Part shown: positions 208-9,669 of the stretch, piece by piece
Numbering within the stretch: position 1 is the stretch's first letter
Layout of the letters: the number at the start of each line of letters is the position of its first letter
Notes under the pieces: generated by a model
Told to the model about the DNA's origin: nothing
The model's database searches: none
Seen by the model: only the letters and a program-made list of their open reading frames with translations
Translations under genes and position numbers: made by a program
IMG/VR virus record: IMGVR_UViG_2690316285_000015
DNA length: 11,026 nucleotides
Reading direction: 5' to 3' (one strand)
Origin: a virus
Lineage: Duplodnaviria; Heunggongvirae; Uroviricota; Caudoviricetes

Positions 208-1038
208 ATGCTGAAATGCGGTCACTGTGGGGGCAATATTGCAATTCACTATAATCATGTACGAACTAAGTATGTTATTTGTCGTAACAGGGAAGAAAAG
301 AAGATCTGCGATGCTAAATCTATCCAGTACATGAGAATTGAAAAGAACATTCTACAGCTTGTCAAAAATGTAGACTTCAATAAATTGATGATGGAAGGTA
401 AGTCGGATTCAGATTCATTGCTTGCATCATTGCGAGAAGAGTTAAGTACTTTACAGAAAGAGGCAGAAACCTATCAGGTTAAAATTAATGAACGTAAGGC
501 AGCAGGTAAGAAAGCCTCGTTACCATTAATGACGGGTTTAACTGAGGTACAGGATAGAATTGAAGAAATAGAATCTGAGATATTAAATTCAAAGAACATC
601 AAAGAAATCCCTGTATTTGATTTCGATATTAATAAAGTACTTGATCCATTGAATGTCGAGTTACGTGCAAAGTTACGGAAAGAAGTAAGATTAGTACTGA
701 AATCTGTTAAGTACTGGGTTTTTGAAAAGCGTATATTTGTACAGTTGGAATACTTCAATGATGTCCTATCCCATACGCTTGTGATTGATAACAAGCGGGG
801 CGGGGGTGAAGTACTACATGAGATCGTAATCTCTGAAACAAGCGGCGAGCGTGTCTACACTGTCAATGAAGAGGGCAAAACCGTTTTCATTGCCTCCGTT
901 ACATCTGGTACTGATATGTGGTCGCTTGCCATTAGCCGTACCAAAATACTTGATGATGTTGGATTGTATCTTAATCTTCTCAAGCGTGAAAAATTTGAGA
1001 TCATTGTTAATGAAGATATGATTGATTGGATGGATTAA
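208..1038 (+). CDS. Large serine recombinase, C-terminal region (zinc beta-ribbon plus coiled-coil); N-terminal catalytic part not intact in this window
   Basis: Translation begins ...LKCGHCGGNIAIHYNHVRTKYVICRNREEKKICDAKSIQYMRIEKNILQLV, matching the C-x2-C ... Y-x-C ... C pattern of the recombinase zinc beta-ribbon domain, followed by a charged coiled-coil-like stretch (LREELSTLQKEAETYQVKINERK...). The same frame is open back to 70 and encodes IDNLTFERANEKL, resembling the end of the recombinase domain, but TAG at 67-69 closes it and the only open frame upstream (frame 3, 3-92) ends at TAA 93-95. Confidence 0.65.
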   Translation: MLKCGHCGGNIAIHYNHVRTKYVICRNREEKKICDAKSIQYMRIEKNILQLVKNVDFNKLMMEGKSDSDSLLASLREELSTLQKEAETYQVKINERKAAGKKASLPLMTGLTEVQDRIEEIESEILNSKNIKEIPVFDFDINKVLDPLNVELRAKLRKEVRLVLKSVKYWVFEKRIFVQLEYFNDVLSHTLVIDNKRGGGEVLHEIVISETSGERVYTVNEEGKTVFIASVTSGTDMWSLAISRTKILDDVGLYLNLLKREKFEIIVNEDMIDWMD

Positions 1039-2705: not shown

Positions 2706-3260
2706 ATGAACCCTAAAATCACTTGGAGATTAATTCCAAATTCAAAACATTACTACGTATCTGAAAATGGCGATGTTTACAATGATAAAACAAAACAGTA
2801 TATAGCTACGAAAAACCCATCTAATGGATACAAAAAAGTTTCTATTAATGGCAAATCACTATATGTACATGTTTTGGTTTGTACTTTATTCAATGGTGCT
2901 AAACCCATTGGAGGAAGATACACTGTAGATCATATCGACCGCGATAAAATGAATAACAAAGCAAAAAATTTACGTTGGGTAACTCAGAAGGTTAATAATT
3001 CCAATAGAAAGCATAAAGGTACTCGTACTCAAAAGCTTACTCTAAAGCAATGGTTAATGATTGTTGGAGAGTACCTTAAAGGACAATTATCTCAATATGC
3101 AATCACTAAATGGTTTTTAAATCAAACTGGTATTAATATTTGCCCTCAGAATATAGGTAAGTTATTCAAAGGTACTACCTATTCAAAATGGTACACAACA
3201 TATCTTACGAATAAGCAAAGACAAAGAATACAAAGCCTAACCATTCAACGTAAACCATAA
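2706..3260 (+). CDS. HNH homing endonuclease (HNH-AP2 type, phage freestanding endonuclease family)
   Basis: SLYVHVLVCTLFNGAKPIGGRYTVDHIDRDKMNNKAKNLRWVTQKVNN matches the conserved core of phage HNH homing endonucleases (H..L.. then HID..K.NN...NLR.VT...N); AAGGACG upstream of ATG. Confidence 0.8.
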   Translation: MNPKITWRLIPNSKHYYVSENGDVYNDKTKQYIATKNPSNGYKKVSINGKSLYVHVLVCTLFNGAKPIGGRYTVDHIDRDKMNNKAKNLRWVTQKVNNSNRKHKGTRTQKLTLKQWLMIVGEYLKGQLSQYAITKWFLNQTGINICPQNIGKLFKGTTYSKWYTTYLTNKQRQRIQSLTIQRKP

Positions 3261-3381: not shown

Positions 3382-3843
3382 ATGGCAAAAACCTATTCAA
3401 CTTTTGATAACAGAAACATAAAAGCACTAATTAGCCAGTACAAGCTATATAAAGATATCCCATGCGAAGACATCAAGAACATCATGAAGGACTCAGTAGC
3501 TAAACTTAAAGTGAGAGATAAGATTAGTGTATATGATGTGTTTGCAGTATTGAGTAATGAAGATGAATTACGGAATGATTTACTATTCAATACTATCAAT
3601 GCTATTAAAGTACAACAGAATAAGAAACAAGTAAAAGAACGTATGATCAGGTACTATGGGGCAGCGATCACGGATGCAGCAAAACGAATAGAGCAGTATA
3701 TGTTGGCACACCCAAACGCACTGCCAGCACCAGTATATGGACAAAGAACACTAACATATAAAGAGTTTGGTAAACTATTGGAACTACAAAAACAAGGTGA
3801 CTTTATTGATGACATGATCGAGTACTTAAAGGGCTTGCGTTAA
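3382..3843 (+). CDS. Hypothetical protein (153 aa)
   Basis: Long open frame with consistent coding composition; no recognisable motif. Confidence 0.5.
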   Translation: MAKTYSTFDNRNIKALISQYKLYKDIPCEDIKNIMKDSVAKLKVRDKISVYDVFAVLSNEDELRNDLLFNTINAIKVQQNKKQVKERMIRYYGAAITDAAKRIEQYMLAHPNALPAPVYGQRTLTYKEFGKLLELQKQGDFIDDMIEYLKGLR

Positions 3844-3852
3844 TTGTAACTT

Positions 3853-3889
3853 ATTACGGCATATTACGGCATGGATGTATGCCGTAATA
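3853..3889. repeat. ATTACGGCAT repeat cluster: two tandem direct copies plus one inverted copy forming an 11-bp stem hairpin
   Basis: ATTACGGCAT at 3853-3862 and 3863-3872, reverse complement ATGCCGTAAT at 3879-3888; further TACGGCA copies at 3887-3893 and 3922-3928; followed by an A7 run, not a T run. Confidence 0.6.
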
Positions 3890-4306
3890 CGGCAAAAAAA
3901 GCCCCTGAAACCCGCTATTTACCATCAATACGGCAACTAAGTATAGAGATACGAAATCCATTCCATTTCATTCCATGTATTTCTTTCTCTATCAGTATTC
4001 CAAGAAACTGTGACTTGCGTCACGAATACTACTCGTCGTGAACTCCTCGTAGTATTGGTTAGTAACGTTGCGTTTTTCTCGCCAGTACTCGAAAACCCGC
4101 AAGGCGTTACTACTCGCTTTGCTCGATAGATGTTAGTACAGCAAATGAAGTACCTAAAGTGAATTGGTAAGTACGACATGCCCCGCCAGTTCCACAACTC
4201 TCGCTCTGGTCATTTCCACTACTATGATGCTATTGGATAGCTACATAAAGTACTGGATCAAGTAGGCATTTTTTGTGTACAAAGAGGGAATTAAGAGAGG
4301 GATACC

Positions 4307-5050
4307 ATGAACAGAAAACAATTCATCCAGTCGCATGGTGCTACTTGTAGTAACTGGACTTGGAGTTGGTCATTTGTGAACCACGACAAGAAAATGGTTA
4401 TCTTTGGTGCATGGGATGTACAAAAAGAGCAAGAAAGATCAGTCATTCTGAGGGAGCGGTGGAAAACCAAAGTTGTGGAGGGAAAGGAAAGAAAAAATCT
4501 TGGATATATTCAAGCTATTGAACACATTCAATTGATAGCTGAAGGTTATGAGCTTTACACGTTTGATATGGAGCAGGGACGAAACGATGAGAATAGAGAT
4601 GTAGCTGTTATCAAACGGTTCACTCCAAAACTTGAAAAACGTTACCTTCGGAAAGAAGGAACAGTTTGGTATGCAGACTTTTTACCTAATCCATTTCCAG
4701 ATGAAATTACCTCACCTGAAAACTACGCTGAGGGTGCAAAAAAGCAAGTTACAGTAAACTCCTACGAGCGTGATCCAAAAGCACGACAGGCTTGTATTGA
4801 CCATCATGGTACTTCCTGCGGGTGTTGTGAGTTTAACTTTGAGAAAGTCTATGGTGAACACGCCAAGGGCTTTATACACGTTCATCATATCAAACCGCTA
4901 CACACAGTAGGCGAGGATTACGAGGTAAATCCAATTACTGATATGGTTCCACTTTGTCCAAACTGTCACGCAATGGTACATCGCGGTAACGAAGTATTAA
5001 GTGTCGAAAGTTTAAAAGCACTGTTGTTTAAAGACAGCAATAAAATTTGA
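4307..5050 (+). CDS. HNH nuclease with McrA-like C-terminal HNH domain and an N-terminal domain of unknown type (possible modification-dependent restriction-like enzyme)
   Basis: C-terminus CGCCEFNFEKVYGEHAKGFIHVHHIKPLHTVGEDYEVNPITDMVPLCPNCHAMVHRG has the C-x2-C ... HH ... N ... C-P-N-C-H arrangement of McrA-type HNH domains; AGAGAGGGA SD-like element just upstream of ATG; ends at TGA. Confidence 0.7.
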   Translation: MNRKQFIQSHGATCSNWTWSWSFVNHDKKMVIFGAWDVQKEQERSVILRERWKTKVVEGKERKNLGYIQAIEHIQLIAEGYELYTFDMEQGRNDENRDVAVIKRFTPKLEKRYLRKEGTVWYADFLPNPFPDEITSPENYAEGAKKQVTVNSYERDPKARQACIDHHGTSCGCCEFNFEKVYGEHAKGFIHVHHIKPLHTVGEDYEVNPITDMVPLCPNCHAMVHRGNEVLSVESLKALLFKDSNKI

Positions 5051-6663: not shown

Positions 6664-6975
6664 TCAGAAGGGTAGTTCCCCCTGATCACAGAACCAATCA
6701 CCTTCTTCACTGCTTTGATTCATCCGGTACTCAGCAGATAGATATGCTAACCCATCAATAACACTTATTAGTGGTGTTTCACAGGTAAGTACAAAACAAT
6801 CTCTCTCTATAGTACCTAACCAGTATTCCCTGTACTGATTCTGGAAGAATACCCTATCCCCATAATGAAATTCTGTTAGTGCAGATCCCCAATAACACAC
6901 GGTTGCCCAGCGACCGTTATGTGAGAACTTCTGAACCCCTCGCGTAATGGATGGATCATAGCCGTCTTTGCTCAT
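6664..6975 (-). CDS. Hypothetical soluble protein (103 aa)
   Basis: Strong SD: reverse complement of 6976-6995 reads AGAGGAGGGTAACAA immediately before the ATG; ends at TGA; no recognisable domain. Confidence 0.5.
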   Translation of the reverse strand: MSKDGYDPSITRGVQKFSHNGRWATVCYWGSALTEFHYGDRVFFQNQYREYWLGTIERDCFVLTCETPLISVIDGLAYLSAEYRMNQSSEEGDWFCDQGELPF

Positions 6976-7082
6976 TTGTTACCCTCCTCTATGTATTACT
7001 GTATATATGTACAGTATTGCAGTCAGTTTCCCAAAAATCCAGCACCCCTTTGTTTACCACTTTGAATGATTAATTCTATTGT

Positions 7083-7135
7083 AATGATCAATAAAATTGA
7101 TCGATTTAATTGCCAATGTTTTAAAAATGATCAAT
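7083..7135. promoter_or_regulatory. Operator-like repeats AATGATCAAT with three GATC sites, in the divergent intergenic region
   Basis: AATGATCAAT at 7083-7092 and 7126-7135; palindrome GATCAAT-AAA-ATTGATC at 7086-7102; GATC at 7086, 7099 and 7129. Confidence 0.4.
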
Positions 7136-7167
7136 TATCAATAACTTAAAGCGTAACGAGCAAAGTT

Positions 7168-7719
7168 ATGAACATTGATAATTGGGCAATACCGATAACA
7201 AGTTTGGGTGGTCAGTTGCTGGGGGTTGAGTTGGTCAGCCATGTAGAACGCGAGGGAATCAGGCAGATCGGCCTATGGGAAGAAGAAGTACTTCATGGGC
7301 AACTAATGCTTATTGAAAGCAAGGCGGCATGGTTCAGGGATAACGGTTTGTATTGTGTGATTACTACTGGCCGTGGTGAACCATACGAGTACTTACCATT
7401 CCTTCGGCAGATGACAAGGGATATGAAAGTACATAACCAGCAGTGGCTTGATGATCTCGGTGTACATGGTGGTTCTGCTATTCCTCTGGTTACAGGTGAT
7501 TTCGAGGTTGCCCGATTAAATAGAAGGTACACAGAAGAGAACATTGACCGTCTGATCTTTCCAGTACTCATAAAAAGCATTCGCCAGTACTGCGAGAAGG
7601 TGATCGTACCCGTCAGAGATAAAACGTATTACCCAATTCTCAGAGAGGCCGGTGTATGGGCGGTACAGGGAGAGTTCAGGCCAATGCGTTTTGAGCAATG
7701 TGAAAAATTAATAGGATAA
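7168..7719 (+). CDS. Degenerate EAL-like domain protein (YdiV/RflP-like; catalytic motifs not conserved)
   Basis: AIPITSLGGQLLGVELVSHV parallels the start of EAL domains (QPIV...G.EAL.R) with ELV in place of EAL; WLDDLGVHGGSA parallels the DDFGTG(Y)S motif in degenerate form; C-terminal AVQGEF parallels the (V/L)QG(Y/F) motif. At 183 aa it is shorter than catalytic EAL domains. Confidence 0.55.
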   Translation: MNIDNWAIPITSLGGQLLGVELVSHVEREGIRQIGLWEEEVLHGQLMLIESKAAWFRDNGLYCVITTGRGEPYEYLPFLRQMTRDMKVHNQQWLDDLGVHGGSAIPLVTGDFEVARLNRRYTEENIDRLIFPVLIKSIRQYCEKVIVPVRDKTYYPILREAGVWAVQGEFRPMRFEQCEKLIG

Positions 7720-9249: not shown

Positions 9250-9475
9250 AGATATCTCGAACCGTAATTATATCCATCATCAAATGCTTCATTGGTTATT
9301 ACCAGTTCCCTGTAAAATTTCTNNNNNNNNNNNNNNNNNNNAGATATCTCGGTAAAATGCCGCCGCCTTATGGTGCATTTCATTATGAAACAGCACCTGA
9401 TGAGAAATTTTACAGGGAACTGGTAATAACCAATGAAGCATTTGATGATGGATATAATTACGGTTCGAGATATCT
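9250..9475. repeat. 73-bp perfect inverted repeat flanking an assembly gap
   Basis: Left arm 9250-9322 is the exact reverse complement of right arm 9403-9475; between them lie the N run and 61 bp of unique sequence (9342-9402). The palindromic octamer AGATATCT occurs at 9250, 9342 and 9468. Confidence 0.7.
9323..9341. other. Assembly gap (19 N)
   Basis: Run of n characters; true length and content unknown. Confidence 0.95.
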
Positions 9476-9669
9476 AAACAAAGAAGGAACTTTGTACGAT
9501 GATATTAAATGTAAGCGGCTTTGATACTCATGATTCATTGTATATAGCTTACAAAGTATATTAACCATTGCATTCAATGGGTCCCTCCATACTGGCGGTA
9601 CTATCGAGGGTTTTCGGCAGCGGGTTTAATCAATTGTGTGTGAACAAAATGATCATACCCGCACCGCAT

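Follow-up and report, generated by a model that had tools for sequence, protein, structure and literature searches.

In the heteroimmune repressor–operator pairs of phages, operators such as OR and OL of lambda, or the direct-repeat C operators of P2 that flank the −10 of Pe, comprise several short sites for one phage-encoded protein. The put RNAs of HK022 and the nut sites of lambda are cis-acting RNA elements that lie just past early promoters and make RNA polymerase resistant to termination, and in the immunity CI RNA of P4 (seqA/seqB/seqC) and the C4 antisense RNA of P1 and P7 an untranslated leader carries a hairpin and alternative pairings. The analyses presented here concern a module in a stretch of tailed-phage DNA (Caudoviricetes; IMG/VR record IMGVR_UViG_2690316285_000015) of 11,026 nucleotides (nt), the whole of which is called the window below. 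The module occupies the 463 nt gap (3844–4306) between the gene for p153, a member of an unannotated family of proteins of ~155 amino acids (aa), and a gene for an HNH nuclease. In its layout it may be likened to a phage operator–promoter region joined to a leader RNA of the put/nut or the P4 kind. We suggest that p153 binds five repeated sites and controls a promoter at 3919–3947, from which a structured plus-strand RNA acting in cis would be made; this proposal stands, in our judgement, evenly balanced between right and wrong.

The resemblance to the lambda and P2 operators extends to one site lying inside the promoter with the others 40–130 bp away, and to protein and sites changing together. 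Unlike those operators, however, the sites of the module stand at the 3′ end of the gene of the presumed binder and not in its own promoter, and unlike the lambda and P2 repressors p153 is a putative binder without a recognisable helix–turn–helix or ribbon–helix–helix fold. As with put and nut, the predicted stem–loops lie directly past a putative phage promoter and before variable accessory genes, and a single-stranded YGCUC-containing motif, CUCGCUUUGCUCG, presumably recalls boxA (CGCUCUUA), if faintly; unlike put and nut, the element is larger, has no Rfam match, no established similarity in sequence or structure and no evident N-like protein, and a literature search for put-like elements returned nothing relevant. 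Like the P4 CI and the C4 RNAs, the transcript would be an untranslated leader with a hairpin and alternative pairings; unlike them, it has no Rfam C4 match, its distances and sizes differ, and many members of the module form the alternative 5′ pairing only imperfectly.

In particular, the repeats are not random. Starting 10 nt past the p153 stop codon, two direct copies of ATTACGGCAT (3853–3862 and 3863–3872) are followed by an inverted copy, ATGCCGTAAT (3879–3888), and by AATACGGCAA (3886–3895), which recurs at 3927–3936; an earlier note on this DNA, made by a model from the letters alone, had reported the tandem and inverted copies at 3853–3888 and further TACGGCA copies, all of which are present. 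Exact matches to WWTACGGCAW number six in the window against 0.16 ± 0.38 expected (none of 200 dinucleotide shuffles reached six), and five of the six – four direct and one inverted, partly overlapping, with start-to-start spacings of 10, 16, 7 and 41 nt – fall within 84 nt (3853–3936). The outer copies of the distal cluster form a 12 bp perfect inverted repeat, in which 3852–3863 pairs with 3878–3889 (12/12 complementary). This first hairpin (3852–3889) is followed by AAAAAAAG, an A-run and not a T-run, and a terminator scan flagged it on neither strand; its identity as an intrinsic terminator is therefore rejected, and the earlier note had judged the main hairpin, with its A-run, to be no canonical terminator.

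Moreover, the motif changes together with the upstream protein. At every locus the module lies directly downstream of a gene for a ~155-aa homologue of p153; a cluster of ~10 nt motifs, typically two direct and one inverted, comes right after the stop codon and, after a spacer of 40–130 nt, one further copy abuts a TATAAT-like hexamer. The distal cluster is conserved among relatives of the type found in the window, type A, and types B–F carry analogous clusters built of other motifs. To the earlier note's concern that the repeats might be unconserved in related elements, the answer is that the layout recurs and the motif is type-specific. The p153 homologues fall into at least seven sequence types (the seventh in locus L023), those of the other types being distant mutual homologues that are 13–22% identical to p153 and alignable with it from end to end; six of the protein types are each paired with a motif of their own, the 43 unique loci contain no exception, and the proximal copy tracks the protein type even when the downstream leader belongs to another lineage (L048 versus L021). 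As in an operator array, then, a motif occurring beyond chance overlaps a putative promoter and changes together with the upstream protein. Because the layout recurs with a type-specific motif and with one copy in the promoter-like spacer, we read the repeats as protein-binding sites: the TACGGCA repeats behave like sites for p153, whose binding to them we infer.

The p153 family comprises 93 clusters at E ≤ 1e-3 in a search of 5.8 billion proteins, all of them ‘hypothetical’ and devoid of Pfam domains, with every named member stemming from Enterobacterales; p153 itself has no match in Pfam, NCBIfam or PHROG. Its AF2 model is confident and all-alpha (pLDDT 84) and has no significant match in the PDB. 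A natural p153-less variant exists in the S. sonnei assemblies L001 and L006 (~9456–9512, corresponding to ~3817 of the window), in which the insertion element IS1 sits 27 nt before the p153 stop codon and replaces everything leftward, from the recombinase gene to p153, the 463 nt region and the HNH gene being 100% identical.

The fifth repeat, AATACGGCAA at 3927–3936, fills the 17 nt spacer of a putative σ70-type promoter, with a predicted transcription start at ~3954. The homologous site of L050, TTTACA-18-TATAAT on the strand of the element, matches the σ70 consensus at 11/12 positions and has the type-B motif in its spacer, that of L043 scores 9/12, and TATAAT or TATATT stands directly 3′ of the proximal motif in all types. 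Past the predicted start lies a G-poor segment with a tandem CATTCCAT (3959–3966 and 3969–3976) and with AGTATTC (3994–4000), which repeats the 3′ arm of hairpin H0 in direct orientation. Within this segment, at 3959–3978, a tandem CATTCCATTT/CATTCCATGT has an extra 5 nt TCCAT unit in strain L008, a Shigella sonnei read assembly, and this short tandem repeat therefore slips.

Further downstream, the module has a conserved core of ~215 nt that includes two predicted hairpins, H0 and H1. The earlier note had recognized the AATACTAC/GTAGTATT hairpin, here H0, although its arms lie at 4025–4032 and 4049–4056 and not at 4024–4031 and 4048–4055; likewise, of its two TACTACTCG copies that at 4108–4116 was placed correctly and the other was off by one (4027–4035, not 4026–4034), and both belong to a conserved CTCGCTTTGCTCG-type motif instead of forming a repeat pair of their own. 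The H0 stems of other types differ in sequence (AGAGACT/AGTCTCT, AGAGGCT/AGCCTCT and AGAGCCT/AGGCTCT) at the same position; in most types the 5′ arm of H0 has two possible partners, direct copies of one another, and in types other than A an extra helix, P0, encloses H0. H1 occurs in every member, and no other element of the module is as conserved: two clean compensatory changes in its stem (T-A to A-T, G-C to C-G) distinguish the window from its ~91% identical relatives, and in distant types the outer stems of H1 (GAAC/GTTC, AAACC/GGTTT and ATCC/GGAT) surround a common apex. Past H1 the conserved order is motif CTCGCTTTGCTCG, AGTAC motifs and then AAAGTGAWTTGG; homology among phages with different cargo stops at ~4167. 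Many relatives have a further 100–350 nt of conserved hairpin-rich sequence that is absent in the window. A covariance model built from the other types matches the window at 4019–4113 (40.5 bits, E 5e-5).

Covariation in these helices exceeds that of displaced controls. Across the three helices in 25 relatives aligned with MAFFT, 88.5% of cells are paired, against 36–45% when the partners are slid, and 11 of 31 pairs show double changes, against at most four; in 39 sequences including the window, an alignment that was fitted to the model and so leans towards it, the values are 88.4% against 38–52% and 19 of 31 against 5–12. For both alignments, the observed value was attained by no shuffle out of 500 on four of the five measures and by a single one on the fifth. 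About 91–93% of H1 cells are paired. Double changes affect four of the ten H0 pairs in alignment A4 and eight of ten in A12, the alignment of the 39 sequences, where P0 has six of eight and H1 five of 13. Stems that alter their sequence and yet keep pairing argue for a folded single strand. This bears on a DNA-only role, in which the palindromes and repeats would be protein sites, or boundary sequences that favour recombination of the cargo, with no RNA function. Such a role could draw on the position of the module at the left edge of a highly variable cargo slot, on the two copies that flank one cassette in L050 and on the loop motif AGTACT, which is part of a genome-wide DNA signal. Considering, however, that protein sites on double-stranded DNA have no need of stems that swap sequence and keep pairing, that homology-driven exchange requires sequence identity and not conserved structure, and that wobble-type pairs are biased to one strand, we regard it as improbable.

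As to the strand, cells that can pair only as G·U number 46 on the plus strand against 14 on the minus strand (H1 32:0, P0 12:3, H0 2:11), folding of the 3′ domain of the long forms favours the plus strand, with 23 pairs to 16, and the promoter-like element has the same rightward orientation as all flanking genes. The RNA is thus probably made from the plus strand. Several observations weigh against the proposal of an operator-controlled, plus-strand leader. The promoter of the window is weak, its 8/12 match (4/6 + 4/6) falling under the scan threshold of 9/12, so that it went unflagged; that of type C was also unflagged and has no recognisable −35. Most of the covariation stems from few lineages, and physical linkage could account for part of the match between protein type and motif type. 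Exchanging H1 arms had a moderate effect (cognate −14.1, non-cognate −11.5 ± 3.2 kcal/mol), modest because many arms are interchangeable. The wobbles of H0 are mostly of the minus type, the folding energy of the window picks no strand (−92.3 kcal/mol plus, −92.2 minus), the H0 region of relatives folds better on the minus strand, and the plus strand is C-rich in the gap (GC skew −0.19), which is unusual for a structured RNA. Structure comparison revealed no recognisable DNA-binding fold in p153, and much of the cargo lies on the strand opposite to the module.

Some of these points would suit a functional RNA from the minus strand, either antisense or a stand-alone small RNA, transcribed leftward across H1 and then H0, in the direction of the end of the p153 gene. 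In the gap, the minus strand is rich in G; the H0 region of relatives folds at, for example, −36.8 against −22.9 on the plus strand; the minus-strand consensus has more pairs, with a covariation term of −22.0 against −10.9 kcal/mol; and 11 A·C cells of H0 would be G·U on that strand. In addition, the small type-A hairpin reads there (4023–4010) as GTGAC-GCAA-GTCAC followed by AGTTTCTTGG, the only terminator-like site that the terminator scan found in the gap. Since no conserved minus-strand promoter was found, the extra helix is a U-run with AGAGA that composition alone could provide and that is absent in type A, and the wobble cells of H1 as well as the 3′ domain speak for the plus strand, we consider a minus-strand RNA doubtful, indeed quite improbable.

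The arrangement in L050 and L092 separates the two halves of the module. Both carry two structured units in the same orientation (L050 8844–8977 and 9956–10085), and the order in L050 is repeat array and promoter, unit 1, a reversed PDC-S29 gene, unit 2 and, directly after it, the HNH247 gene, a homologue of the 247-aa nuclease gene of the window. The 5′ boundary of unit 2 coincides exactly with that of P0, and the unit lacks a repeat array; although its sequence has diverged, the hairpins are retained, as is an AGTAC in the loop of H1. Structured unit and repeats can thus be separated. The duplication would suit an RNA element able to function in any place where it is transcribed; it speaks against an origin, since an origin would require its iterons.

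The main rival reading is a replication origin. The repeats would then be iterons for p153 as a type-specific initiator, the TATAAT-like stretch an unwinding element, and H0 and H1 hairpins that form once the DNA is unwound into single strands and that serve in priming or in the loading of a helicase. The order of repeats, AT-rich stretch and palindromes next to the gene of a specific binder does resemble ori-lambda, with its O protein, and the ori next to rep of Staphylococcus aureus pathogenicity islands (SaPI) and phage-inducible chromosomal islands (PICI), lambda-type and iteron origins in which the repeats are likewise specific to the adjacent product; it is a resemblance only. Further, family searches of the proteins encoded in the ~10 kb from recombinase to terminase revealed no recognisable replication, repressor or antiterminator gene, so that origin and initiator must lie among the unknowns, and the strand asymmetry of the hairpins is weak. 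Unlike iteron origins, however, the window has no AT-rich element (3896–3960 is ~58% A+T), although most other types carry an AT-rich TTATATTAATATTAA; the region has no DnaA boxes (TTWTNCACA is absent), the spacing of the repeats is irregular and partly overlapping, and p153 is small and not similar to known initiators. The hairpin unit can occur without repeats, as unit 2 of L050 does, the promoter-like hexamers hold σ70 spacing, and G·U-type pairs are biased to one strand. Taken together, we judge an origin to be rather unlikely. A partition site, which the earlier note had also listed, is unlikely too, given that the element integrates and that no ParA-like gene was seen.

The module is not tied to the HNH gene that follows it in the window. 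The gene after the module varies among relatives (HNH247, a p157-like membrane protein, reversed genes, unknowns) and stands in either orientation. Known defence systems that fill the slot in relatives are PDC-S29 (E 1e-86), a type II methyl-directed restriction enzyme (mREase_II, E 8e-63), a nuclease of the OLD family (E 7e-72) and a Drt2 reverse transcriptase (E 1e-206), the last of which has an Rfam RT-12 RNA as its neighbour; in PADLOC the HNH protein of the window bears a weak resemblance to methyl-directed restriction enzymes of type IV (E 5e-7). The module is thus the conserved left border of a defence-gene slot. Like the defence hotspots of P2-like phages and P4-like satellites, the slot has a fixed backbone position and interchangeable anti-phage systems; unlike them, it belongs to another phage family and is bounded by a conserved non-coding structured element and not by core protein genes only. 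Since the same module precedes other cargo, it is not an HNH-specific control region, and since much of the cargo is reversed, the RNA would not simply be the 5′ untranslated region of the cargo. Among the functions that the earlier note had proposed, an operator array and a structured RNA are therefore supported together, by the repeats and the compensatory hairpins, whereas promoter control for the HNH nuclease gene is not. An HNH-linked RNA (a guide, or HEARO-like) was rejected, the module occurring with other cargo and the HNH protein being a small McrA/type IV-like and not an IscB-like protein. What does travel with the HNH cassette is the last ~130 nt of the gap, whose conservation is confined to loci with an HNH247 homologue next in line, among them the distant contexts of L020/L021, copy 2 of L050 and L060.

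An ordinary gap made up of a terminator of the upstream operon, an HNH promoter with its 5′ untranslated region and chance repeats is already contradicted and seems to us highly improbable. The first hairpin does come right after the stop codon and its type-B equivalent is followed by a T-run, but the repeats go far beyond chance, the hairpin of the window runs into A residues and does not pass the terminator scan, the module is found without the HNH gene, and its structure is conserved with covariation.

The gap is non-coding. Its main open reading frames are 3871–4041 (plus strand, 56 aa) and 3937–4197 (minus strand, 86 aa, TTG start), the rest being shorter; a 5 nt insertion in the 98.9% identical strain L008 falls inside both, several 1 nt insertions or deletions occur in the gap of ~91% identical relatives, and the minus-strand frame has no Pfam match. 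A coding reading is therefore rejected on account of these frame-breaking changes and the lack of a family match, and the earlier note was right to see no credible open reading frame here. Among ten recovered S. sonnei loci the gap is 100% identical in seven and 98.9–99.8% identical in three, and in IMG/VR relatives it is ~91% identical. Loci retrieved through the HNH protein keep the entire 463 nt at ~91%, L019 keeps only the right half (from ~4053), and some keep the main hairpin alone, 1.4–2.3 kb away from the HNH gene. Searching viral, genome and metagenome collections with a hairpin-apex pattern, which fixes the apex sequence by construction, added ~60 true loci; several contigs are short. 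The covariance models of Rfam 15, which include C4, HEARO, retron and RT-associated RNAs, ROOL, GOLLD and riboswitches, gave no match in the window at the gathering threshold; a permissive search of 3750–4400 returned just two chance-level matches (E ≥ 0.5), and in nine long-form relatives nothing lay within the element. ARAGORN likewise found nothing.

Considering these findings, we suggest the following course of events for an operator-controlled leader. The five WWTACGGCAW copies would be p153 binding sites, four clustered at the end of the p153 gene and the fifth in the promoter spacer, where bound p153 would repress the promoter or, conceivably, activate it instead. Transcription would proceed rightward from ~3954, and the first ~215 nt of the transcript would consist of the G-poor segment, H0, H1 and a single-stranded CUCGCUUUGCUCG...AGUAC...AAAGUGAWUUGG tail. 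The RNA would most likely act in cis on its own transcript, through elongation/antitermination, processing or stability, and the downstream cargo, whatever it is, may thereby be read or insulated under control. A discrete RNA of ~250 nt would be equally possible in relatives with a terminator after the core (L045 and L056), and reading into reversed cargo could equally serve silencing. A bolder idea, which we hold to be unlikely, is that the core represents a new phage RNA class – an antiterminator/insulator, or a ColE1- or T4-like origin primer or R-loop RNA – switched by type-specific DNA-binding proteins of a new fold; as an antiterminator it may be protein-independent and processive, allowing the prophage to express or silence any defence cassette behind the core.

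The features of the module and of its surroundings are collected in Table 1. The window is the left arm of a prophage, with a recombinase fragment at its start and terminase genes at its end. The exact HNH protein encoded at 4307–5050 is found in many assemblies, the names of related proteins being those of S. sonnei, and in S. sonnei the recombinase gene adjoins yeaH and the prkA/yeaG gene. At least one IMG/VR relative (L047 1–8621) shares with S. sonnei this location of the prophage beside yeaH and prkA/yeaG, with a serine recombinase of 644–647 aa at the junction. Relatives are IMG/VR contigs of ~28–37 kb and genomes of Kluyvera, Mangrovibacter, Enterobacter, Serratia, Buttiauxella and Dryocola; the module is thus a core part of a mosaic prophage family that is integrated next to yeaG in Shigella and occurs in several other genera. 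Searches at the DNA and protein levels against the 50,697 phage records deposited revealed no relative, the 5,426 complete E. coli genomes searched by nucleotide sequence likewise contain nothing similar, and almost none of the non-structural proteins of the window can be assigned to a family. A divergent repressor-like region, separate from the module, lies at 6664–7168. The homing-endonuclease-like gene upstream of p153 is present in only some relatives. A perfect 73 nt inverted repeat with an 80 nt spacer (9250–9475) was rejected as an assembly artefact flanking a run of 19 N (9323–9341); other S. sonnei assemblies have plain contiguous sequence there.

Table 1. Features of the module, its repeat types and its genomic surroundings (window positions unless a locus is named)
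Feature	Position	Strand	Details
C-terminal part of large serine recombinase	208–1038		At window start; Pfam Zn_ribbon_recom
Free-standing HNH_3/NUMOD4 homing-endonuclease-like gene	2706–3260		Two genes upstream of the gap
p153 gene	3382–3843	+	~155-aa all-alpha family without annotation; candidate binder of the repeats
Distal repeat cluster	3853–3895		Two direct copies, one inverted copy and AATACGGCAA
Putative σ70-type promoter	3919–3947	+	−35 TTACCA (3919–3924), −10 TATAGA (3942–3947)
G-poor 5′ segment	3954–4003	+	2 G in 50 nt
Small type-A-specific hairpin	4010–4023	+	GTGAC-TTGC-GTCAC; stem invariant, loop TTGC/TTGT/TGGC/TGC
Hairpin H0	4025–4056	+	AATACTAC / GTAGTATT, 16 nt loop
Hairpin H1	4060–4112	+	TAGTAACGTTGCG...CGCAAGGCGTTACTA, apical loop CCAGTACT
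Conserved 3′ part of core	4114–4167	+	TCGCTTTGCTCG (4114–4125), AGTAC (4135, 4149), AAAGTGAATTGG (4156–4167)
Segment travelling with HNH cassette	4176–4306	+	GGCATTTTTTG (4265–4275), TGTACAAAGAG (4276–4286), ribosome-binding site AAGAGAGGG (4293–4301)
HNH nuclease gene (cargo of the window)	4307–5050	+	247 aa; Pfam HNH at residues 171–226
Nu1-like and GpA-like terminase genes	Window end		
Type A motif (window)			TACGGCA
Type B motif			ATAACCGTAAC
Type C motif			AATTAGTAC
Type D motif			ATTAGCCC
Type E motif			TCGCAAG
Type F motif			TTAGGGT
Slot loci of relatives with known defence systems	L056 10009–10138 and adjacent open reading frame; L044; L075; L050 9042–9719		

Apart from the module, the phage as a whole is rich in one palindrome. 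AGTACT is ~9-fold over-represented in the window, where 33 sites compare with an expected 3.7, and AGTAC is found 118 times as against 20 ± 4.8; the sites lie in all three reading frames as well as in non-coding DNA, with an extended consensus of roughly CCAGTACTGG. Every relative checked (L011–L067) shows a 6–11-fold enrichment of AGTACT; the host flank has none, and unrelated phages with an HNH homologue have none or one. Per kilobase, GTAC occurs 1.5–4 times in cargo genes (HNH247, with 4, p157 and p222) against 4.5–30 times in the other genes of the window, and GTAC density therefore marks the phage backbone. Enriched across the whole phage, GTAC motifs were rejected as a feature specific to the gap, and a literature search on AGTACT or GTAC enrichment found nothing relevant.

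Finally, we suggest that the module provides a candidate RNA family together with a candidate family of regulators in an unstudied phage group. If the proposed operator and leader hold, a conserved structured RNA outside Rfam would exist in prophages that are widespread in Enterobacterales and absent from phage collections, and p153 would typify a new family of small proteins whose specificities number at least seven, every one matched to a DNA motif of its own; such orthogonal protein–operator pairs would possibly be useful parts. The significance would be smaller if the element were an ordinary origin. Otherwise the RNA would be the conserved left border of a slot for defence genes, defence cargo could be found by searching for the RNA and reading what follows it, and the module would offer a tractable case of how a prophage controls accessory genes that stand in either orientation.

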